A DNA stretch of 64,000 bases, from positions 437,767 to 501,766 of the forward strand of contig DBQF01000001.1 of assembly GCA_002305115.1 (NCBI GenBank), given 5' to 3'. Positions 3,947 through 57,358 of the stretch are shown one piece after another. Position 1 is the first letter of the stretch. Each line of letters begins with the position of its first letter. The translations under genes were made by a program, and so were the position numbers. The notes under the pieces were generated by a model. It saw only the letters and a program-made list of their open reading frames with translations, ran no database searches and had not been told where the DNA came from. The DNA is from a candidate division WWE3 bacterium UBA1401 (GTDB lineage: Bacteria; Patescibacteriota; WWE3; UBA101185; UBA10185).

Positions 3947-6010
3947 ATGTTTAGGCTCCATGCTAACTACAACCCAACAGGAGATCAGCCAAAGGCTATC
4001 CAATCTCTTACTCAAGGTTTGCGAGAGGGCAAAAAGCACCAAACACTTTTGGGTGTTACAGGTAGTGGCAAAACTTTTTCAGTAGCTAACGTTATCGCAA
4101 ATATAAATAAATCCACCTTAATTATATCGCACAATAAAACTTTGGCAGCCCAATTATTCCAAGAATTTAGAGATTATTTTCCTGAAAATGCTGTTGAATA
4201 CTTTGTAAGTTACTATGACTACTATCAGCCTGAGAGCTACTTGCCTTCCACAGATACTTATATTGAAAAAGACGCAGATATAAATGAACAAATAGATAAG
4301 CTTAGGCTTGCGGCTACAACTTCTCTTATGACAAGAAAAGACGTTATTGTTGTAGCTTCGGTGTCTTGCATTTACAACCTGGGTTCACCAGCAGAGTACT
4401 CGAAAGTGGCGCTAGAACTTAGAAGTGGTATGAAGATCAGAAAAGCTGATGTATTAAAAAGACTAACTCAGCTCTACTATGACAGATCCGAAATGGATTT
4501 TAAACGTGGTACTTACAGAGTAAGAGGTGATGTGGTTGACATATTTCCGGCATATCAAGACATGGCAGTGAGGCTTGAGTTGTTTGATGACAAACTTGTT
4601 TCTATAACCTACTTTGATCCCTTAACAGGTGACTCTATTGATAGAAGTATGTTACCTACAGAAAGGCGTGGCAGCCATACCAAATCTGTAACACAGGATC
4701 CTGAAGATTACGTTGAGCATATTGCAAAAGAAGGCAACTTTGCACTTATTTACCCTGCTAAACACTATGTTACTGCTGAAGAAAGCAGAGAGGGCGCCCT
4801 AACTCAAATTAAGCATGATCTAGAACTTAGACTTGGTGAATTACGTGCTTTAGGTAAGAACCTGGAGGCATATAGACTAGAGCAGCGCACTAACTATGAT
4901 CTGGAAATGATGCAGGAGATTGGTTACTGTAAAGGTATCGAGAACTATTCGCGCTATTTTGATGGCAGAGGCCCTGGAGATGCCCCATACAGCTTAATGG
5001 ACTTTTTTCCAAAAGATTACCTGTTAGTGATAGATGAATCTCATATTACAATTCCCCAGATTAGAGGCATGTATAACGGAGATCAGGCGCGCAAAACAAC
5101 TTTGATTGACTATGGTTTTAGATTACCTTCAGCTAGAGACAATAGACCACTTAATTTTGAAGAATTTCTAAAAAAGACTAACCAGATTATATACACCAGT
5201 GCTACTCCGGGTGATTGGGAGCTTGGCATGTCTGAAACTAACATTTATGAGCAACTAATTCGCCCAACCGGTATTGTTGACCCAAAAATCACCGTATTAC
5301 CTACAGAGGGTCAGGTAAATGATTTGCTTGAGCGAATACAAGAGCGCGTGGCAAGAGGAGAAAGAGTTCTGGTTACCACTCTTACGAAAAGAATGGCAGA
5401 AGAGCTTGCTTCCTTTCTAGTGGAAAAAGGCATAAAGGTAACTTATTTGCACTCCGATATCGATACTCTAGAAAGAACTACAATTCTTGATGACTTACGT
5501 AAGGGAAACTACGACGTACTTGTAGGTATTAACTTGCTAAGAGAAGGATTGGATCTGCCTGAGGTTTCCCTGGTGGCTATTCTGGATGCAGATAAGGAAG
5601 GTTTTTTAAGGTCTGATAAGTCTTTAATTCAGACTATGGGAAGAGCCGCCCGACATATTCTTGGGGAAGTAGTTATGTATGCGGACCATATCACTGATTC
5701 TATGAAACGTGCTATGGATGAAGTGGAAAGACGAAGAGAATATCAGATGCAATACAACCTTGAACATAACATTGTTCCTGTAGGTATAACTAAGCCAATA
5801 AGAGAGAAACTTATTGATGAAGAGCTTGAGGAAGCCCTAAAGCCGCGTGGTAAGTCTATAGATATTGACTATGGCCAACTTCCGCCAGATGAGTTGGCTG
5901 AAGAGATTAAAAAGCTAGAACAGCTTATGCTTTATGAGGCAGAAGTCTTGAATTTTGAGGAAGCGGCAAAAATAAGAGACTTAATTAAAGATCTTAAGAA
6001 GTTTCTATAA
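3947..6010 (+). CDS. uvrB: Excinuclease ABC subunit B
   Basis: [19 protein letters not shown]-terminus, Walker A GVTGSGKT, helicase motifs (DESH, TSATP), and a C-terminal UVR motif ([11 protein letters not shown]). The ORF track starts at 3905, but the conserved N-terminus and the -10 box favour 3947. Confidence 0.95.
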
Positions 6011-6069
6011 ATTTTTGAAAAATCATTGTAATGTTTCTACTTTTTTGATACATTTCCCGCATCGGACAT

Positions 6070-8202
6070 ATGAGGGAAATTTTAGAAAAAGGACAGCAGT
6101 TTATATTCCGCATTCTAAGTATTTCCTTTAGTTTCAACAAGAAAGTTGGCTACTCTTTGATTTCCATTTTTGTTTTTTTCCAGGATGCTGCAAACAAGAT
6201 TAGAACACTGCGTATTGTAAAATTCTCGCCGGGTTTACCTTCCCTCAAAACTGTAAAAATCTTTGTTTTCGGGTTTATAGCTTCACTTGTTTTCGTTTTT
6301 GTTCCTTATCAGTTAATTACTTGGTTGAAAAATCTGCCTAATCCTGCGCTTATTAAGGCAAGTCAGCAATATCAACCAACCCAAATTCTGGATCGAAAAG
6401 GCAGACTACTTTACGAAATTTACATCGACAAAGAGTACAAACCGGTTAAGCTTGAGCAAATTCCTAGAGATGTTATTGCTTCAACAATAGCCATTGAAGA
6501 TGACAAATTCTTTTCACATCCTGGATTTAGGCTAGACTCCATAATCAGAGCTGCTAAATCAATATTTTTTGAAAACAGGCTGGAAGGCGGATCCACAATT
6601 ACTCAACAGCTTGTAAAGAATGTACTGCTTACGCCTGAACGCACTATATCAAGAAAACTGAAAGAGTTAGTATTAGCAGTTTGGATTGAAGCTAAATATT
6701 CTAAAGAAGAAATTTTGGAATTGTATCTTAATAACATTCCTTACGGTGGTTCGGCCTGGGGAGTTGAAGTAGCTTCTCAGAAGTTTTTTGGCAAACACGT
6801 TTCGGAATTAAACCTCGCAGAGGCAAGTTTGCTCGCGGGTTTACCAAAAGCTCCTACAATATATTCACCCCTAAATGGTAATTTGGATATGGCTAAAGTA
6901 CGGCAACGTTTGGTACTAGACAAAATGGTTGAAATGAACTACATCTCTGAGGAAGAAGCTACAGTTGCTTTTAACCAGCCTTTACACTTTGTGACACAAG
7001 CTGAGTATATTAGAGCACCTCATTTTGTTACCTATGTCAGGAATTATCTTGAACAAACTTATGGCCCTAGGTATACAAACTTTGGCGGATTAGTCGTCAC
7101 CACAAGCCTGGATCTCGATTTGCAGGAGCAGGTCCAAACTATTGTAAGTAGGGAGGTGGCAAGAAGTGATTATCTGAATATAACAAATGGTGCAGCAGTT
7201 GTTTTGGATTCAAAAACCGGGGAGATTTTAGCTTATGTTGGGTCTGTTGATTATTTTAAAGAAGGTTGGGGCGCTTTTGATGTTATTACCGCATTTAGGC
7301 AGCCTGGTTCATCTATCAAACCTTTAACTTATGCGTCGGCTTTCAAGAGTGGACTTACTCCGATTTCAGTAATTGATGATTCCCCTGTAGCTTACCCAGA
7401 TGAGTCTGGTGTGTATAAGCCTGTAAACTATGATGGCAGATTCCACGGTAGAGTAACCTTAAGGCAAGCCTTGGCAAATTCATATAATATTCCTGCAGTA
7501 AAACTTGTACACAAATTAGGCGCCGATAATGTTGCTACTTTAGGTAGGGATCTGGGTCTGCAAGGCTGGGAAGTTGATGGTAATTATGGTCTTGCTATAA
7601 CTTTGGGCGGCAGGGAAGTAAGGTTGCTGGACTTAGCCAATGTTTATGCTACCTTAGCTAGAGGCGGAAAATATACCAGTGTTACCCCAATTGTTTCGAT
7701 TACAGATGCTAAGGGGTATGAGATATACACAAAGCATATTGTAGAAAGGCAGATAATTGATACGGGAGTTGCCTATATGCTTACACACATTCTGTCTGAC
7801 AATGCAGCAAGGAGTGCTGCTTTTGGGCCAAATAGTATGCTTAATATTCCTGGTTATCAAGTGGCAGTTAAAACCGGAACTTCTGATTTGAAAAAGGATA
7901 ACTGGACATTTGGCTATACGCCCAGTTATACAGTAGGTGTTTGGGTGGGTAATAACGATAACACACCTATGAATGAATACCTGGCTTCCGGGTTAAGTGG
8001 TGCTGCCCCGATTTGGAATCAGATTATGGTGAACTTGCTGGAAGGAACGACTGCAGAAAATTTTGAGGTGCCTAGTGACGTTATTGTATTTAAAGATGAA
8101 AAATGCAATATGACGGAAGTTTTTTTAAGAGGCTCAAAGATACCTAGTAGATTGTGTGCTGAGCCAAAGAAAGAAGACAAGAAAGACAAGGACGACGATT
8201 AA
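6070..8202 (+). CDS. Class A penicillin-binding protein (PBP1A-type transglycosylase/transpeptidase)
   Basis: GT51 motifs EDDKFFSHPG and GGSTITQQL. Transpeptidase motifs SSIKP (SxxK), SYN (SxN) and KTGT. N-terminal TM segment. Confidence 0.9.
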   Translation: MREILEKGQQFIFRILSISFSFNKKVGYSLISIFVFFQDAANKIRTLRIVKFSPGLPSLKTVKIFVFGFIASLVFVFVPYQLITWLKNLPNPALIKASQQYQPTQILDRKGRLLYEIYIDKEYKPVKLEQIPRDVIASTIAIEDDKFFSHPGFRLDSIIRAAKSIFFENRLEGGSTITQQLVKNVLLTPERTISRKLKELVLAVWIEAKYSKEEILELYLNNIPYGGSAWGVEVASQKFFGKHVSELNLAEASLLAGLPKAPTIYSPLNGNLDMAKVRQRLVLDKMVEMNYISEEEATVAFNQPLHFVTQAEYIRAPHFVTYVRNYLEQTYGPRYTNFGGLVVTTSLDLDLQEQVQTIVSREVARSDYLNITNGAAVVLDSKTGEILAYVGSVDYFKEGWGAFDVITAFRQPGSSIKPLTYASAFKSGLTPISVIDDSPVAYPDESGVYKPVNYDGRFHGRVTLRQALANSYNIPAVKLVHKLGADNVATLGRDLGLQGWEVDGNYGLAITLGGREVRLLDLANVYATLARGGKYTSVTPIVSITDAKGYEIYTKHIVERQIIDTGVAYMLTHILSDNAARSAAFGPNSMLNIPGYQVAVKTGTSDLKKDNWTFGYTPSYTVGVWVGNNDNTPMNEYLASGLSGAAPIWNQIMVNLLEGTTAENFEVPSDVIVFKDEKCNMTEVFLRGSKIPSRLCAEPKKEDKKDKDDD

Positions 8203-31702: not shown

Positions 31703-31772
31703 AAACCTGGCCGTGCCATTCGTAGCAGGTGATAGAGCTTTTTGTCCTACTTCATCCGCCTGCGGCGGATGG
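31703..31772 (-). repeat. tRNA-linked structured repeat, copy C (shortened variant)
   Basis: Contains the exact 20-mer catccgcctgcggcggatgg (31753..31772). The far end ctggccgtgccattcgtagc is homologous to copies A and B. Confidence 0.65.
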
Positions 31773-31778
31773 TGGGCG

Positions 31779-31807
31779 CGCTTAGCGAGCCTCCCCCACG
31801 CTAAGCG
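31779..31807 (-). other. 9-bp hairpin abutting the CCA of tRNA-Val
   Basis: cgcttagcg (31779..31787) pairs with cgctaagcg (31799..31807), with an 11-nt loop. Confidence 0.7.
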
Positions 31808-41022: not shown

Positions 41023-41138
41023 TGGCTGTGCCATCCAAAGCGTTAACAGTAAAAGGTTATGTTAACTTCAGACAGGTCCTTCTTCGCTACGCCCTACCTG
41101 CCGGCAGGCAGGTACGAAGGACATCCGCCTGCGGCGGA
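41023..41138 (-). repeat. tRNA-linked structured repeat, copy A (longest; carries a 22-nt extra palindromic hairpin 41093..41114)
   Basis: Aligns with copy B over its whole length (see findings). Its 20-mer catccgcctgcggcggatgg (41122..41141) overlaps the tRNA-Asp CCA. Confidence 0.75.
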
Positions 41139-41215
41139 TGGCGGGACCGACGGGTCTCGAACCCGCGACCTCTTCCGTGACAGGGAAGCGCTCTAACCAA
41201 CTGAGCTACGGCCCC
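41139..41215 (-). tRNA. tRNA-Asp (anticodon GTC), CCA encoded
   Basis: Minus strand reads GGGGCCGTAGCTCAGTTGGTTAGAGCGCTTCCCTGTCACGGAAGAGGTCGCGGGTTCGAGACCCGTCGGTCCCGCCA. Confidence 0.9.
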
Positions 41216-51099: not shown

Positions 51100-51131
51100 C
51101 CCCCTCTCCATGGGCATTCATGGAGAGGGGG
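51100..51131 (+). other. Perfect 13-bp G/C-rich hairpin 21 nt after the polA stop, followed by G-runs instead of a U-tract
   Basis: CCCCCTCTCCATG-GGCATT-CATGGAGAGGGGG, then ACAGGGGGTAGGGGGGTATAGGAGGAGAGG. Confidence 0.75.
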
Positions 51132-51272
51132 ACAGGGGGTAGGGGGGTATAGGAGGAGAGGTGTTAATTGCTTCTTTTGTTTTAACAACAATGAATTACC
51201 TTCACTTGTTTTAAAATTCCTTTTAGGAAGGCCAGAAAACATTATCAGATAAATTGCATGAGTGCTAGAAAG

Positions 51273-51281
51273 TGTTAGAAT
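51273..51281 (+). promoter_or_regulatory. Extended -10 box TGTTAGAAT, 7 nt before the clpC-like ATG (leaderless geometry)
   Basis: TAGAAT at 51276..51281, ATG at 51289. Confidence 0.6.
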
Positions 51282-51288
51282 ACAAACC

Positions 51289-53367
51289 ATGGTTATATGT
51301 CATAGGTGTGGTCAAAGACCTGCCGTAATAACAACAAATCAAATAATTAATGGCCGAAGTGTCTATATGCACTTGTGTGAAGTTTGCTATCGGGAGTTGC
51401 AAAAGGAGGCGTCTTCAACATCTGTACTGGATAAATTTGGTAGAGACTTAACACAACTTGCGCGTGACGATAAACTAGACCCTGTTATCGGCCGAAAAGA
51501 TGAAATAGATAGAGTAATTCACATCCTTTCACGAAGAACCAAGAACAACCCGGTTCTTATTGGTGATCCCGGAGTTGGTAAAACTGCTATTGCGGAAGGA
51601 CTTGCCCAAAAAATTGTAGCTGGCCAGGTACCGGAACCCCTTAGAGGTAAAAGGGTATTTGCGCTAGATTTAACTTCTGTTGTTGCTGGAACTACTCACA
51701 GAGGTATGTTTGAGAAAAGGCTCAAAGATATTATAGATGAAGTTGTAAAAGCACAAGGACAAATCATTCTGTTTGTTGATGAGTTACATACTGTAGTAGG
51801 CGCTGGTGCTGCTGAAGGCTCTATTGATGCTGCAAACATCTTAAAGCCTTCTTTAGCTAGAGGAGAACTTCAGATGGTTGGTGCTACAACTGTTGATGAA
51901 TACAGGCAGCACATAGAAAAAGATGCAGCGCTTGAGCGAAGATTCCAGCCGATTATGGTAGAAGAGCCTTCTATTGATGAAACTATCGAGATTATCAAGG
52001 GGTTACGTGAGCGTTATGAAAAACATCACCAGGTGAAAATTACTGATGAAGCTATTGTAGCTGCCGCGAAACTCTCTGATAGATACATCAGCGAACGCTT
52101 CCTCCCCGATAAGGCTATTGACTTGATTGATGAAGCCTGTGCTTTAGTAAGGCTTTCTCAAGTTAAAGAGCCGGTGAACCTAGCTCAAGTTGAGGAGAAG
52201 CTTATAGTTGAAAAAGCTAAGCTTAGAGAAAATCCTAACAACGAAGCTATCAAGAAAGAAATTGATAAGTTGGAGAAGGTAAAGCAGGAATTGGTTGATA
52301 TTTGGACTAAAACTAAGTTGGAAGAAATTCCTGATGTGACGGAGGAAGCTATTGTGAAAGTAGTTTCCAAGGCTCGGGGCATTCCCTTGAACAAGCTGAG
52401 TGTAGAGGAAAAAGACAGACTGTTGAATATGGAGACCATGATTCACCAAAGAATTATTGGCCAGCAACGTGCAGTAGGTGTGGTTTCTGAAGCTATTCGT
52501 AGGGCGCGTGCTGGGCTAAAAGATCCAAAAAGGCCAATAGGCGCTTTCCTGTTCCTAGGGCCTACCGGAGTTGGTAAAACCGAGCTTTCGAAGGCTTTGG
52601 CTGAAGTGCTGTACGGGGATGAGGATATGATTGTTAGGCTAGACATGAGCGAATATATGGAAAAGCACTCGGTAAGTAAAATGCTCGGTGCCCCTCCTGG
52701 TTATATTGGTTATGAGCGAGGTGGTAACCTTACAGAAATTGTAAGAAAGAAGCCGTTTTCGATAATTCTGCTGGATGAGGTTGAAAAGGCTCATCCAGAG
52801 GTTTTTAACACTCTGCTTCAGATCATGGAAGATGGCAGGCTTACCGATAGCAAAGGCAGAACAGTAGATTTCAAGAACACTATCATAATCATGACCTCTA
52901 ATGTAGGTTCTGAATTATTGCGCCGCGCTGATATTGGGTTTGGTGCAAGTTTGCCAAAAACATCTGATGATAGCAAAATGGCCTTTGAGAATAGGGTAAA
53001 GGGGGTTCTTAAAGACACATTCAAGCCGGAGTTCTTGAATAGAATTGATGAAATTGTGATATTCCAGACTCTTACAAGAGAAGAAGTCAGGCACATTGTA
53101 GACAAACTACTCGTGAAAACTCAAGAAAGACTTATGGAGCAGCAGATTTCTTTGTTAGTTGATAAGAAGGCAAAGGAATATTTGCTTGAACACGGCTTTA
53201 GTGAAGAGTATGGTGCAAGGCCGTTAAGAAGGCTAATTCAAAAGGAAATCGAAAATGTGCTGTCTTCAAAGCTTATTTCAGGTGAAGTGCAAAATGGTGA
53301 TACTGTAAAGATTACCAGTTCCAGAGGCGCACTGAAGCTCAAGATTGAAAGTCCTGCGAAAGTATAA
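51289..53367 (+). CDS. clpC: ClpC-type double-AAA+ chaperone with N-terminal McsA-like zinc ribbon instead of the Clp N-domain
   Basis: [13 protein letters not shown]...HLCEVCY, then [23 protein letters not shown]. Two Walker A boxes ([16 protein letters not shown]), a short M-domain, and the ClpP-loop IGF. Start moved from 51262 to 51289. Confidence 0.88.
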
Positions 53368-53411
53368 GAATTGAAATTTTCGCAAATATCTGATAATCTC
53401 TTGGAGTTGCT

Positions 53412-53777
53412 ATGGCTGATCAAATGGAGAAAACACAAGAAAATACAACTGAGGCGGTAAAAGAGCTTCCAAGATTCAATGTGGGTGACACTATTGTAGT
53501 GAATTACCGTATTGTTGAAGGTGATAATGTTCGTGTACAACCATTTGAAGGTATTGTAATCTCCAAGAGAGGTTCAGATAACTCTAAAACCTTTACTGTT
53601 AGAAAGATTGGTGCTGATGGTATTGGTGTTGAGCGTATTTTCCCATTGTTTTCTCCTAATATTGAAAGTATTGATGTAACAAAGCAAGGGCGTGTCCGCA
53701 GAGCAAAGCTTTATTACTTAAGGGGCAAAAAGGGTAGAGCCGCAACCCGTATTAAGGAAGCCCCCGCCAAGGCTTAG
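53412..53777 (+). CDS. rplS: 50S ribosomal protein L19
   Basis: [33 protein letters not shown]...[15 protein letters not shown]. Confidence 0.9.
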
Positions 53778-54040
53778 GCCTTCATAGTAAATCTTGGCTT
53801 ATTAATTCCGTCTTTTTCTATTATTTCAGACCATGCGCTAGTAGTTCTTATCCAAGGTCCTCCTATGGGGGTATTTATACTTTCATATATTACACACGGT
53901 TCTAATGTTGCTTCCAAAATACCGATAGATATAACTTTGTAAAGGCCGCCCCTGTAGTGTTGCCAAGTACTACCTATGGGAATTTGTTTCTTTGTCTGTT
54001 CAATAACGGAATTTATCTCTTCTGCAGATGATTTAGGCAT
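53774..54040 (-). CDS. DUF1653-like small protein
   Basis: [29 protein letters not shown] matches the DUF1653 pattern from memory. Confidence 0.6.
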
Positions 54041-54049
54041 ATCAAAAGT

Positions 54050-55087
54050 TTAACACTCTTTGGCGGCGAGTTGGCCACAGGCTCCCTCTATATTTATTCC
54101 AAAATCTTGTCTTATAGTATTTTGTATGTGTCTAATGTCTAGTATTTCTTTAAACTTACGTAACTTTTCCTCAGAAACTTGCCTAGACTCTTTACCCGTT
54201 GGGTGATACCTAATTAAATTAACATGATACAAATATGCCTTGTTTCCCCTTTTCCTAATGAGTGTGGCTAAAGCTCTAGCATGATCTTCAGAATCATTAA
54301 TTCCGCCAAGCAGTGTATAGGCTACAAACACTTTCCTATTGGTAACCTGCACATGGTTGTCTAGTGCGTGGAAAACCTGATTAATTGAGTATTGCTTAGT
54401 TATGGGCATAAGTTCTTCCCGTTGCTCATTAAACGGGGTGTGTAGTGAAATGGCTAAATTAACTTGTGGAAACTCCTTTGTTAGTCTTTCAATTCCCGGA
54501 ACTATACCTACAGTAGATATGCTCAGTCTTCTAGGGCTTAGCCCGATCATAGTTTCGTATGTGAAGATATTCAAAGCTTCCCATAAATTTGGGTTAGCAA
54601 ACGGTTCACCCATGCCGCTAAAAAATATAGTCTCAATATCCTCACCGTTTTGCCTAAAATAAAGGTACTGATCCACAATCTCATCCTCGGTTAGGTTTTT
54701 CCTAAAGCCCAAAGCGCCTGTAGCACAAAAGGCACAGCCCATGGCACATCCGCTTTGTGAAGAAATGCACAGCGCGTTGTGCTTATATGGTCTTTGTTTA
54801 TTGGGAAGAAACGTCATTCTTACGGCTTCGATTTTTTCCCCGTCTCTGGTTTCAAAAAGCATTTTTTGTGCTTGAGTATCTTGACTTTGGGTAATAGGCT
54901 TGAGAGTAAGTACCAGGCCTAGGTTTATTTCCAGCTGCTGTCTTAAGTTTTTTGGAAGATTGGAAATTTCGGAATAGCTTTTTATGTTTTCCTTGTAGAT
55001 GGCCTGGAATATCTGATTTTGCCTGTAGTTAGGTAGCTTATTTTGTAGGATTATTTCCGAGATGATTTTGTTTCTGGTTTGATGCAT
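54050..55087 (-). CDS. rlmN: 23S rRNA/tRNA adenine-C2 methyltransferase RlmN (radical SAM)
   Basis: Radical-SAM CAMGCAFCATG, SGMGEPFANP, and C-terminal GACGQL. Confidence 0.9.
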   Translation of the reverse strand: MHQTRNKIISEIILQNKLPNYRQNQIFQAIYKENIKSYSEISNLPKNLRQQLEINLGLVLTLKPITQSQDTQAQKMLFETRDGEKIEAVRMTFLPNKQRPYKHNALCISSQSGCAMGCAFCATGALGFRKNLTEDEIVDQYLYFRQNGEDIETIFFSGMGEPFANPNLWEALNIFTYETMIGLSPRRLSISTVGIVPGIERLTKEFPQVNLAISLHTPFNEQREELMPITKQYSINQVFHALDNHVQVTNRKVFVAYTLLGGINDSEDHARALATLIRKRGNKAYLYHVNLIRYHPTGKESRQVSEEKLRKFKEILDIRHIQNTIRQDFGINIEGACGQLAAKEC

Positions 55088-55096
55088 AACGGTAGT

Positions 55097-55105
55097 ATTT
55101 TAACA
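55097..55105 (-). promoter_or_regulatory. Extended -10 box TGTTAAAAT (minus strand), 9 nt before the rlmN ATG
   Basis: The minus strand reads GTGTTAAAATAC-TACCGTT-ATG. Confidence 0.5.
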
Positions 55106-55139
55106 CTTCCGGTTTTCTTAACCCTTCCTTACACCAATC

Positions 55140-55148
55140 TGCTAAGCT
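55140..55148 (+). promoter_or_regulatory. Extended -10-like box TGCTAAGCT, 6 nt before the sod ATG
   Basis: TAAGCT at 55143..55148, ATG at 55155. Confidence 0.4.
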
Positions 55149-55154
55149 TAAAGC

Positions 55155-55784
55155 ATGAACTTACAAACTACCAATTATCAATTATCTTCATTACCTTACC
55201 AACTTTCCTCCCTAGAGCCCTTTATTTCGGAAAAATTACTCACGTTGCACTATCAAAAGCATCACCAGAGTTATGTAGACAATGCAAATAAGCTTTTGGA
55301 GCAACTGGCAGCTGCCAGACAGGCAGGAGAGGCAGTTAATTATCGTGACACTTATCAGGCGCTTACGTTTAATGTAGGTGGCGTTGTTTTGCATGATCTT
55401 TTTTGGAACAGTATGAGCCCTGCAGAAGAAGATCACGCTTTAGACGTGTCCTTCAAAGAAGCCTTGGAGCAGGAGTTTGGCAGTATAGATAGATTCAAGG
55501 ATGAATTTACTCAAACTGCACTTGCTGTTCAAGGGTCTGCGTGGGTGGTATTGGCGCTTTGTAAGCAAACTAAGCGGTTGATGCTTATGCAGGTGAAGGA
55601 TCATAGTTTGTATGTGTATCCGGGGTGTGAGTTGTTGATGGCTCTAGATATGTGGGAGCACGCGTTTTATTTAGATTATCAAACAGACAAGAAGGGGTAT
55701 GTTGAGAGGTTTTGGAGTTATGTGAATTGGAACGGTATTGGGGAGAGGTTTGAGAAAGTGAGTGCTAAAGAAGCGCAGGGGTAA
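55155..55784 (+). CDS. sodA: Fe/Mn-family superoxide dismutase
   Basis: LPYQLSSLEPFIS...LHYQKHHQSYV and DMWEHAFYLDYQ. Metal specificity cannot be called from sequence by eye. Confidence 0.88.
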   Translation: MNLQTTNYQLSSLPYQLSSLEPFISEKLLTLHYQKHHQSYVDNANKLLEQLAAARQAGEAVNYRDTYQALTFNVGGVVLHDLFWNSMSPAEEDHALDVSFKEALEQEFGSIDRFKDEFTQTALAVQGSAWVVLALCKQTKRLMLMQVKDHSLYVYPGCELLMALDMWEHAFYLDYQTDKKGYVERFWSYVNWNGIGERFEKVSAKEAQG

Positions 55785-55824
55785 ACGGTAATGTTTACTC
55801 CTGTGTAGCACAAGGGCCCCCAGA

Positions 55825-56010
55825 TCAGTCGTCCGATTCTACGTCGACATACAGGAGACATTCAGGTAGCTTCGGGTCAATGTACTTTAGTACTACCTGT
55901 CTGTATTCTCCCAGGGGTTCGACAAAAACATAATCGCCGGTGGATATCTGGATAGGGGATTCAAACGTTGCAATTTCCTCCCCGTTGTCATCGAAAATCT
56001 TATATTTCAT
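55825..56010 (-). CDS. Small acidic hypothetical protein (61 aa)
   Basis: Strong SD GAGGAG lies 4 nt before the ATG, with TATAGAAT upstream. I recognise no family. Confidence 0.5.
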   Translation of the reverse strand: MKYKIFDDNGEEIATFESPIQISTGDYVFVEPLGEYRQVVLKYIDPKLPECLLYVDVESDD

Positions 56011-56102
56011 CCGTCTCCTCTGTGTTTTATTCTATACTCAGCTGGTATCCCTTGCGCTCTCCACTATTATATCTTGTAGTAGTAACCTTGCAAGTTTTCA
56101 GA

Positions 56103-56119
56103 GAAAGGTCAGACCTTTC
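56103..56119. repeat. Perfect palindrome GAAAGGTC-A-GACCTTTC
   Basis: Shares the core AAAGGTCnGACC with the two direct repeats at 56180 and 57132. Confidence 0.8.
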
Positions 56120-56179
56120 AAATGCAAAATGTCTTTGTAACAAACTTCTCATAACTATAAGACTGAAAACTGAGGACAT

Positions 56180-56202
56180 AAAGGTCTGACCCTGCGTTTG
56201 GT
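56180..56202 (+). repeat. Direct repeat copy 1 (23 nt exact): aaaggtctgaccctgcgtttggt
   Basis: Identical to 57132..57154. Looser similarity extends about 12 nt upstream (tgagg.a.ataaa). Confidence 0.85.
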
Positions 56203-56297
56203 GAAACGCAAATTTGCATGCTGTGTAAGTATTTGATATAAACTAGTCTGTACTGGAAGTATATATACACCGCATATGTAGAGTAAGGAGGGATATT

Positions 56298-56411
56298 ATG
56301 TTTCCCCCGCGTTGTGAAGAGAGGTGCCCAGTTTGTGGCGGTCAGTGTTATAAGTATCTCGGACATAAGGGTCTGCATGAATGTGCAAACTGTCGCCACG
56401 TATGGAAGTAG
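56298..56411 (+). CDS. Small zinc-ribbon protein (37 aa), not in the ORF track
   Basis: The SD AAGGAGG precedes the ATG by 6 nt. Sequence is MFPPRCEERCPVCGGQCYKYLGHKGLHECANCRHVWK, with CxxxCxxCxxxC and CxxC spacing. A strong terminator follows 13 nt downstream. Confidence 0.55.
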   Translation: MFPPRCEERCPVCGGQCYKYLGHKGLHECANCRHVWK

Positions 56412-56424
56412 GTGTTGTTCTAGT

Positions 56425-56481
56425 ATATCCCTCGTATAGCGTATAGGATTGATCTAATCGCTATACGAGGGATATTTTTTA
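56425..56481 (+). terminator. Rho-independent terminator: 17-bp perfect stem, 17-nt loop, T6
   Basis: ATATCCCTCGTATAGCG (56425..56441) pairs with CGCTATACGAGGGATAT (56459..56475), followed by TTTTTT. Confidence 0.85.
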
Positions 56482-56514
56482 TCGAGGTTTATTGACTGGT
56501 GTAATATAAGTAGC

Positions 56515-57141
56515 ATGTGTGCACCTGTTACTCATTTACTTCTGGCTCAGCAAATTAGAAGGAAATATTTTGCTGACTCGCTCGCATTGCCTTACTATTC
56601 AGGTACTTTATTTCCTGATATTAGACATTATGTAGGTCTTGGAAAATCTATCACTCATGATCTTAACAAAAAGATTTCTTCTCTAATATCAATGTCGGAC
56701 TGGTATAAAGGTTTTTGGGTACACTCGATTGTGGATCAAGTTCATCAAACATATATGGTTCCCAAAGATCCAAGTTCTTTAAGCCCCAAACCTCGGTACA
56801 TGGCTTACGTGTTATTGGAAGACCAGGTATTTTATCCTGAGGCACATAACATAGTTGATAGCAATGCCTATAAGATCACGTATTTCACTGAAGAAGATGA
56901 TTTCGGCATCAGCGCACTTCAGTTAAGAGAATATAAAAGTTTTGTTACGGATTATCTTAGTGTGAGTCCGAATTATGCAAGGCAGATAAGATTCTTAAAG
57001 GAGACTGTTCCCGAGGTTTCAGCTCCTGGTTATATAGAGGCAATGGAAGAGTATTTTAATGGGATTAATAACGAGAAAGTAGTAAATGACATATATAGTT
57101 TAAGAACAAATTTTTTAAGTGAGGTAGATAAAAAGGTCTGA
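56515..57141 (+). CDS. Putative metal-dependent hydrolase (zinc phospholipase C-like fold)
   Basis: N-terminal THLLLAQQI, GTLFPDIRH and KGFWVHSIVDQVH resemble the His/Asp pattern of the zinc-dependent phospholipase C family. The last codons lie inside direct repeat copy 2. Confidence 0.5.
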   Translation: MCAPVTHLLLAQQIRRKYFADSLALPYYSGTLFPDIRHYVGLGKSITHDLNKKISSLISMSDWYKGFWVHSIVDQVHQTYMVPKDPSSLSPKPRYMAYVLLEDQVFYPEAHNIVDSNAYKITYFTEEDDFGISALQLREYKSFVTDYLSVSPNYARQIRFLKETVPEVSAPGYIEAMEEYFNGINNEKVVNDIYSLRTNFLSEVDKKV

Positions 57142-57154
57142 CCCTGCGTTTGGT
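57132..57154 (+). repeat. Direct repeat copy 2 (23 nt exact)
   Basis: aaaggtctgaccctgcgtttggt. It overlaps the stop codon of the hydrolase-like ORF. Confidence 0.85.
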
Positions 57155-57187
57155 TGTAGGTACGGGAAGGAGTGATTAAGAACTGCG

Positions 57188-57283
57188 TGGCTGTGCCATC
57201 CGAAGCATTAACAGTAACAGTTTGTGTTAACATCAGACAAGTCCTTCTTCGCTACGCTTCGAAGGACATCCGCCTGCGGCGGA
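57188..57283 (-). repeat. tRNA-linked structured repeat, copy B
   Basis: tggctgtgccatccgaagcattaacagtaacagtttgtgttaacatcagacaagtccttcttcgctacgcttcgaaggacatccgcctgcggcgga. Its 20-mer (57267..57286) runs into the tRNA-Lys CCA. Confidence 0.75.
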
Positions 57284-57358
57284 TGGTGAGGGCGGAGAGG
57301 ATCGAACTCTCGACACCCTGGTTAAAAGCCAGGTGCTCTACCACTGAGCTACGCCCCC
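57284..57358 (-). tRNA. tRNA-Lys (anticodon TTT), CCA encoded
   Basis: Minus strand reads GGGGGCGTAGCTCAGTGGTAGAGCACCTGGCTTTTAACCAGGGTGTCGAGAGTTCGATCCTCTCCGCCCTCACCA. Confidence 0.9.

Follow-up and report, generated by a model that had tools for sequence, protein, structure and literature searches.

The attC sites of integron cassettes are imperfect palindromes of approximately 57-140+ nt, which carry the motifs R'' (RYYYAAC) and R' (GTTRRRY) and fold as single strands. Sites of the Xer/dif type are 28 bp long and consist of two arms of approximately 11 bp around a central region of 6-8 bp, and the pdif/IMEX modules are moved in trans by recombinases of the host. In genomes of the kind investigated here (544 kb, nearest relatives Patescibacteria-like), mobile elements and repeats are believed to be scarce. 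In the literature on integrons and attC sites in Patescibacteria or the candidate phyla radiation (CPR) we found no title or abstract on integrons in these bacteria. We analyzed a stretch of 64 kb (the window; 12% of the 544,424-bp contig DBQF01000001.1 of the candidate division WWE3 bacterium UBA1401, positions 437,767 to 501,766), in which two identical 23-bp direct repeats bound two genes near tRNA-Lys. One of these genes encodes a 208-aa protein that resembles metal hydrolases. All counts of motifs and recombinases given for this genome refer to the window.

The 23-mer AAAGGTCTGACCCTGCGTTTGGT was found exactly twice (copy 1 and copy 2, Table 1). There was no further match with up to three mismatches elsewhere in the 64 kb, and shuffled sequences predict none. 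A BLAST comparison of the whole window with itself gave six repeat pairs in total, namely one paralogous gene segment, three tRNA-related pairs, a terminator hairpin and this 23-mer. The repeat is unusual for this genome, which is otherwise almost repeat-free. To the left of the 23-mer the similarity continues imperfectly (TGAGG..GA.A.AAA, with two mismatches and a 3-nt in-frame indel; the ungapped version spans 28 nt at 93%), while at the right edge it ends abruptly. The two copies differ at approximately 5 positions in the left 15 nt and at none in the 23-mer, and this is the pattern of a crossover core beside a diverged arm. An assembly artefact was excluded: over 51103-57284 the window is matched without a difference by L001, a Logan assembly of run SRR5321237, so that no single assembler is responsible for the arrangement.

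Both copies contain the 12-mer AAAGGTCWGACC. It is present for a third time, all within 1.05 kb, in a perfect 8+1+8 palindrome of 17 nt, GAAAGGTCAGACCTTTC (site A). Within the window the 12-mer was seen nowhere else, and when up to two mismatches were allowed the number of matches was at chance level. The motif GGTCNGACC was observed four times where 0.23 were expected, and three of the four lie at this locus. Positions 56107-56118 and 57132-57143 are 100% complementary over 12 nt; the sequence is palindromic, hence its orientation is ambiguous. A long imperfect inverted repeat (12+5 bp with a 61-nt interior, 56103-56202) is made up of site A and copy 1; it is located exactly between two divergent promoter candidates. 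Its single-strand fold has -14 kcal/mol (z approximately -2.7) on both strands. An earlier description of this stretch, made without database searches (the sequence-only reading), had reported the perfect 23-bp repeats, a similarity extending upstream of them, a third and fully palindromic core, and distances of 33 nt from copy 2 to a tRNA-linked repeat (57188) and of 130 nt to tRNA-Lys (57284). We found the repeats, the palindrome and the distances exactly as reported; the upstream similarity is present in the imperfect form given above.

The two copies are not equivalent. The only close relative of the 208-aa protein is P0002 (55% identity), and its C-terminus ...FFSEIDSKGYY* aligns with ...FLSEVDKKV* of the 208-aa protein up to the K of ...DKK. 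The last codons of the 208-aa open reading frame (ORF), AAG GTC TGA, fall within copy 2. Because the homology with P0002 extends into copy 2, this copy is the native or ancestral coding 3' end of the gene, and copy 1 is the derived one. Copy 1 reads ...TEDIKV*, an in-frame diverged pseudo-C-terminus that is one codon shorter. It had been claimed that the 208-aa ORF ends inside copy 2, that copy 1 supplies the stop of another ORF and that the picture is that of a duplicated gene 3' end. All of this agrees with our data. The other ORF is 55968-56189 (...TEDIKV*), and the homology reaching ...SE(V/I)D(K/S)K adds which copy is native and which derived.

It is quite possible that the two repeats are the junctions of an accessory module of approximately 950 bp installed by recombination, and we tentatively prefer this reading. 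Recombination is the best single explanation because the repeat is polar, it duplicates a gene end, and the hydrolase family behaves like cassettes in other loci. The exactness of the 23-mer, its sharp right and decaying left edge, its rarity and its presence in a second assembly support the same reading. The module would comprise the zinc-ribbon ORF with its terminator, then the phospholipase C (PLC)-like metal hydrolase. It would have entered, or re-entered, the interval from the 61-aa ORF to tRNA-Lys at a short site containing AAAGGTCWGACC, the palindrome of which a protein may recognise. Copy 2 is the hydrolase's own 3' end, and its derived copy, copy 1, would have remained at the other junction. 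As in integron cassettes, the site at which a circular or tandem intermediate recombines would overlap the stop codon, and the recombinase, if any, would act in trans from outside the window. On excision, the expected junctions would be CTGAGGACATAAAGGTCTGACCCTGCGTTTGGTTGTAGGTACGGG at the empty site and GAGGTAGATAAAAAGGTCTGACCCTGCGTTTGGTGAAACGCAAATTTGC in the circle or tandem. The module now looks resident and is possibly immobile.

Table 1. Features of the locus between sod and tRNA-Lys, with positions in the window.
Feature	Coordinates	Strand	Remarks
sod	55155-55784	+	leftmost gene of the locus
61-aa acidic ORF	55825..56010	-	GAGGAG Shine-Dalgarno sequence
Promoter-like site TTGCAA-16-TATAAT of the 61-aa ORF	56066..56093	-	promoter scan, 10/12
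Site A, palindrome GAAAGGTCAGACCTTTC	56103..56119	.	forms a perfect 12-bp repeat, inverted as well as direct, with the core of each repeat copy
Repeat copy 1	56170..56202	+	exact part 56180-56202; left extension is the pseudo-C-terminus TEDIKV-stop
Candidate promoter TTGCAT-17-TATAAA of the 37-aa ORF	56214..56242	+	by eye; weak; not called by the scan
37-aa CxxC...CxxC zinc-ribbon-like ORF	56298..56411	+	behind AAGGAGG; four Cys
Intrinsic-terminator-like hairpin	56425..56483	+	17-bp perfect stem plus 3 pairs, then T6 tail
TAATAT, candidate -10 box	56502..56507	+	7 nt before ATG (56515), leaderless arrangement; not called by the scan
208-aa metal-hydrolase-like ORF	56515..57141	+	all-alpha; ~205-aa family with a distant relationship to zinc-dependent phospholipase C
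Repeat copy 2	57120..57154	+	exact part 57132-57154; holds the last codons and TGA of the 208-aa gene
tRNA-linked repeat, hairpin-rich, ~100 nt	57188..57294	-	follows tRNA-Lys; neighbour of the cassette, not part of it
tRNA-Lys(UUU)	57284..57358	-	convergent with the 208-aa gene
Promoter-like site TTCACA-16-TATAAT, ~100 nt upstream of tRNA-Lys	57491-57464	-	promoter scan, 11/12

On its own the 208-aa protein gave no match in Pfam, NCBIfam, PHROG or PADLOC, and P0002 was its only word-sharing homolog among 5.8 billion proteins. An exhaustive profile search yielded 420 clusters (at 50% identity) of proteins of approximately 205 aa, with the motifs MAAPITH, GTxFPDIRY, TH and HSxVD and invariant H7, H48, H70 and D74. 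Thirteen of 54 family members match PF00882, zinc-dependent phospholipase C (best E 4.9e-6). AlphaFold with the family alignment gave an all-alpha model of the 208-aa protein (pLDDT, predicted local distance difference test, 95.8), for which Foldseek found no match in the PDB. The name zinc-hydrolase-like, which the sequence-only reading had chosen, is reasonable at the superfamily level and agrees with what was found for the family. The proteins of approximately 205 aa form a candidate new family near PF00882, unnamed and without its own Pfam model. In three members a -10-like hexamer lies 6-8 nt before the ATG with no Shine-Dalgarno sequence (TAATAT at 56502-56517 of the window, TATAAA at 2232-2250 of L002, GATAAT at 5985-6003 of L094). 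This suggests leaderless expression of the hydrolase family.

We compared the locus with 80 metagenomic loci carrying hydrolase homologs of 24-38% identity. The homologs had no conserved neighbours among 56 dereplicated loci. In at least 16 of the 80 loci the homolog stood in an array of co-directional, mutually unrelated ORFs, each followed by an attC-type site of 100-210 nt with ATAAC...GTTAT ends and internal ACCCAAATTT (pattern ATAAC...ACCCAAATTT...AACGTTATnTGAAAT). The stems of these sites covary, with compensatory changes in 21 of 26 predicted pairs. There were 13 sites in L094 (1-11624) and 10 in L104, and these two loci share the same hydrolase cassette among different neighbours (other array loci: L085, L088, L097, L099-L101, L103, L106, L111, L114, L119-L121). 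L119 holds a compact integron-like locus (5029-7400) between lepA and murJ, in which the hydrolase is the first cassette. Its order is a divergent 273-aa tyrosine recombinase, the hydrolase cassette, an attC-type site, a HicAB-like cassette and a partial site. The recombinase scored 234.6 bits on NF040815 (XerA/integron integrase; cut-off 220) and below the cut-off of TIGR02249. Judged by these sites and their covariation, the 16 loci are integron-type arrays. The attC-like sites of the arrays are unusually long, with three helices, and the recombinase of the L119 type is short and XerA/IntI-like.

Direct repeats also flank the homolog in other loci. In L153 it lies between 86-nt repeats (5894-5979 and 6689-6774, 79%, E 4e-15), unrelated in sequence to the repeat of the window, and a third copy follows the homolog in L129 (748-851). 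In L136 the homolog is bracketed by a 23-nt direct repeat at 96%. In L160 (4730-4751 and 5350-5371), and likewise in L158, a 22-nt A-rich repeat at 82% spans the stop codons of an upstream 884-aa gene and of the homolog; given its composition, this match could be due to chance. The gene of a XerC/D-like 315-aa recombinase ends 4 nt downstream, in convergent orientation. The repeat flanking the homolog in L122 resembles a shared promoter, therefore flanking repeats need not imply recombination. Seven homologs abut tRNA genes, and these tRNAs are of various identities.

We also looked at the 3' ends of the homologs. In two independent homolog loci the motif GGTCNGAC lay no more than 60 nt from the stop codon, while approximately 0.3 were expected; this comparison was made post hoc. 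In L002, the locus of the closest homolog, ATGGTCAGA is found twice together with an inverted half-site TCTGACAT just past the stop codon (2885-2935). In L091 (5656-5672, also in L092 and L093) a perfect palindrome CCAGGGTCGGACCCTGG lies within the last codons of the homolog. The recurrence of GGTCNGAC at these 3' ends is suggestive. A 3' palindrome conserved across the whole family was ruled out, as only L002 and L091-93 have one. Taken together, the family results support the cassette reading indirectly.

A number of observations weigh against a module installed by recombination. We searched stop-to-stop ORFs of at least 80 aa by hmmsearch with a hidden Markov model (HMM) built from the recombinases of L119, L158 and L160, and no tyrosine recombinase was matched at E <= 1e-3 in the 64 kb, serine recombinases not being specifically searched; there was also no integrase gene at the module end in the window. 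The sequence-only reading had likewise noted no recombinase. Copy 2 folded with -1.9 kcal/mol, no better than shuffled sequences, and an nhmmer model of 17 attC sites from the homolog arrays had no match in the window. The flanks outside the 12-bp inverted repeats (...CAGAGAAA and CTGCGTT...) differ, so that no target-site duplication was seen. The centre of the palindrome is 1 nt, unlike the 6-8-bp overlap of tyrosine-recombinase cores. The module has promoter-like and terminator signals of its own. In codon usage the 208-aa gene resembles the rest of the genome (rank 40/45), and its GC content is unremarkable; therefore any acquisition would be old or from a close relative, and an old neutral repeat should not be perfect. 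Lastly, the support drawn from the family comes from homologs that are just 24-38% identical.

Several known kinds of element were rejected for this locus. An attC-like site at the repeat has neither the fold, nor the core motifs, nor an nhmmer match: at copy 2 we found GTTTGGT alone, which misses the GTTRRRY consensus, and no ACCAAAC partner. A dif or pdif site was dismissed on inspection, as only one nucleotide lies between the arms and there is no second arm that would match CTGCGTTTGGT. An insertion sequence (IS) or miniature inverted-repeat transposable element (MITE) would agree with the 12-bp inverted ends, but target-site duplication and further copies in the 64 kb are lacking. A repetitive extragenic palindrome or bacterial interspersed mosaic element (REP/BIME) was rejected because, within the window, the 12-mer was seen at this locus only. 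The sequence-only reading had proposed a site-specific insertion beside the tRNA, but we saw no evidence that tRNA-Lys directed one. The tRNA, 130 nt distant, is not the source of the repeat, no 11-mer of tRNA-Lys with 60 nt on either side recurs within 4 kb, and no tRNA fragments flank the 208-aa gene or six tRNA-adjacent homologs.

Foreign composition was excluded, since GC content and codon usage are native. So was a phage, plasmid or defence origin: there were no matches in PHROG or PADLOC, no relatives or 23-mer matches in viral contigs, and tblastn found nothing in plasmids or phages. No close relative came to light: among 185,579 species genomes the best relatives of the isoleucyl-tRNA synthetase (IleRS) had 61% and 57% identity and belonged to Patescibacteria-type metagenome-assembled genomes; upstream of the gene these had no synteny with the window. 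The best relative of Sod had 50% identity, and all window proteins tested were singletons at 90% identity. The cassette described in the sequence-only reading is thus partly supported: the repeats are real and rare, the module is self-contained, and the family behaves as mobile cassette cargo in other loci. Insertion at the tRNA, an architecture of the attC, dif/pdif or IS kind, and foreign composition are not supported.

The palindromes may instead be operators of a dimeric DNA-binding regulator, which would bind cooperatively, perhaps with looping; we consider this somewhat unlikely. The perfect palindrome of site A has a size usual for operators and lies 10 nt upstream of the -35 of the minus-strand promoter match (10/12) of the 61-aa ORF. 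The core of copy 1 is 61 nt further, and copy 1 ends 11 nt upstream of the weak TTGCAT-17-TATAAA candidate. The two sites, with centres 76 bp apart, would bracket the 61-nt spacer between the promoters of the 61-aa and 37-aa ORFs. The restriction of AAAGGTCWGACC, common to all three sites, to this locus within the 64 kb fits operators, and so does the recurrence of GGTCNGAC 3' of two homologs. Located where the 208-aa gene ends, the third site would be a roadblock to, or an insulator from, the convergent tRNA-Lys unit, the strong promoter-like site of which is directed towards the cassette; no canonical terminator was found between the tRNA element and the 208-aa gene. However, this third site adjoins no promoter, and the plus-strand promoter was not called by the scan. 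No helix-turn-helix or regulator gene is adjacent, the 61-aa product being an acidic orphan and the 37-aa product very small. The 23-bp identity would have to be a by-product of duplicating one operator, but it runs 11 nt past the palindrome on one side only and is accompanied by a pseudo-coding left flank, neither of which would be needed by an operator. Copies 1 and 2 also share the imperfect right half-site GACCCTG, which suggests descent and not selection.

A neutral origin of the repeat appears unlikely on balance. Copy 1 would then be the last approximately 35 nt of a lost tandem hydrolase paralogue, or the product of a short ectopic duplication or gene conversion by replication slippage, and the likeness of site A would be due to chance or to an older duplication. 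There are two copies only, copy 1 is a diverged gene end with an in-frame indel, codon usage is native, and neither recombination machinery nor a recognisable site architecture was found. By our own calculation, chance alone should give about one perfect 8+1+8 palindrome in 64 kb (64000/4^8). Nevertheless, a decayed tandem paralogue upstream of copy 1 was ruled out, as tblastn, a six-frame profile HMM search and blastn found no trace of a hydrolase pseudogene beyond the repeat. Under uniform decay, 0 differences in 23 nt next to approximately 5 in 15 would have a probability of about 1% by our own estimate. The repeats, only 61 nt away, agree with site A at 12 of 12 nt, for which we estimate a chance of approximately 2e-4 in that neighbourhood, and the genome is otherwise almost free of repeats.

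A structural or RNA role is highly improbable: site A and copy 1 would form one imperfect hairpin of approximately 85-100 nt, which, as an insulator or as a terminator for both directions, would separate the 61-aa ORF from the tRNA-Lys unit, and the 23-mer, present in the upstream region of the 37-aa ORF and at the 3' end of the hydrolase mRNA, would be a common target of an antisense RNA or an RNase, for which speak the pairing noted above (12+5 bp), a TTTCTCT after the stem on the minus strand and tRNA-Lys read-through that would run antisense to copy 2, whereas copy 2 alone does not fold, site A lies outside the transcripts if the promoters are as predicted, no Rfam family matches, and no relatives carry the element, so that there is no covariation evidence. 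These readings are not mutually exclusive, as an insertion could duplicate a segment with an operator or a terminator arm.

We further considered a bolder form of the recombination reading, which we judge improbable. Here the AAAGGTCWGACC repeats would be sites of an undescribed minimal cassette-exchange system, approximately 23-35 bp long and not hairpin-forming, in an ultra-small Patescibacteria-like genome and served in trans by an Xer-like recombinase of the host. The hydrolase family would be a promiscuous cargo that uses different types of site, attC arrays included, across lineages.

The remaining elements of the locus were inspected as well. All four internal elements listed in the sequence-only reading are present, and TAATAT remains a candidate promoter. 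The 61-aa acidic ORF is an orphan, with no homolog but itself among 5.8 billion proteins. The 37-aa ORF matched zinc-ribbon families, in each case below threshold. It is absent beside other hydrolase homologs, and we therefore ruled it out as a conserved partner of the hydrolase. The terminator-like hairpin (56425-56475) has -35.2 kcal/mol and z -5.6. An Rfam search of the locus gave the tRNA as its sole match.

We observed that the tRNA-linked element is also present 3' of tRNA-Asp (41023-41149), where 70 nt agree at 90% and are more conserved than the tRNAs themselves. The copy at tRNA-Asp has an additional 22-nt palindrome. The first hairpin of the element, CATCCGCCGCAGGCGGATG, is also found 3' of tRNA-Val (31753-31780). 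The element may be a tRNA 3'-processing or terminator module. In addition, TTTCCTCCCCGTTGTCA (55974-55990) and TTTCCCCCGCGTTGTGA (56301-56317) match at 15 of 17 positions, and both encode an N-terminal 'FPPRC', in a spurious 73-aa ORF and in the 37-aa ORF, respectively. This likeness is probably due to chance.

If the reading of the repeats as module junctions is true, a repeat-bounded module without its own recombinase would give a rare view of accessory-gene exchange in such genomes, and the palindrome would offer a concrete, testable site. If the palindromes are merely operators, the finding is ordinary. Apart from the repeats, the analysis defined a sizeable unnamed family (420 clusters, all-alpha, with conserved His and Asp), which is a recurrent cargo of integron-type arrays in uncultured bacteria.

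We compared the locus with integron cassettes. Like them, it is a small self-contained module without an internal recombinase, in which a repeated site overlaps the stop codon of an ORF. The same protein family is found as bona fide cassettes in attC arrays of other metagenomic lineages. Unlike integron cassettes, the repeat of the window has 23-35 nt, no imperfect-hairpin fold and no RYYYAAC/GTTRRRY pair, no integron integrase was found in the 64 kb, and the module contains two ORFs with promoter-like and terminator signals of its own. Islets flanked by att sites, inserted beside or into tRNA genes, are similar in that accessory genes near a tRNA stand between perfect direct repeats as long as an att core, and in that one repeat restores the 3' end of a gene. 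They differ in the position of the repeat, which here lies outside the tRNA, 130 nt away, and in the lack here of an integrase or a compositional signature. The restored 3' end is here that of the cargo gene itself and not that of a chromosomal target.

With Xer-dependent pdif/IMEX modules the locus shares short bounding sites and the lack of its own recombinase, and a XerC/D-like gene abuts the homolog in L158 and L160. The site of the window, however, does not have the 11-6-11 dif-like architecture, the centre of its palindrome is a single nucleotide, and the repeats are direct, while the bounding sites of pdif modules are inverted. Paired operators of the TetR or Xre type are resembled by the 17-bp perfect palindrome and its imperfect copy at a distance of 76 bp, both of which lie a short way upstream of a -35 box of predicted divergent promoters. 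In contrast to such pairs, there is no adjacent regulator gene, a third copy is located at a gene 3' end, and the identity extends well beyond the palindrome. In summary, the locus falls outside integron cassettes, tRNA islands, IS/MITE elements and Xer modules alike. Should it be a cassette, it would count as a variant on a known kind and not as a member of one.

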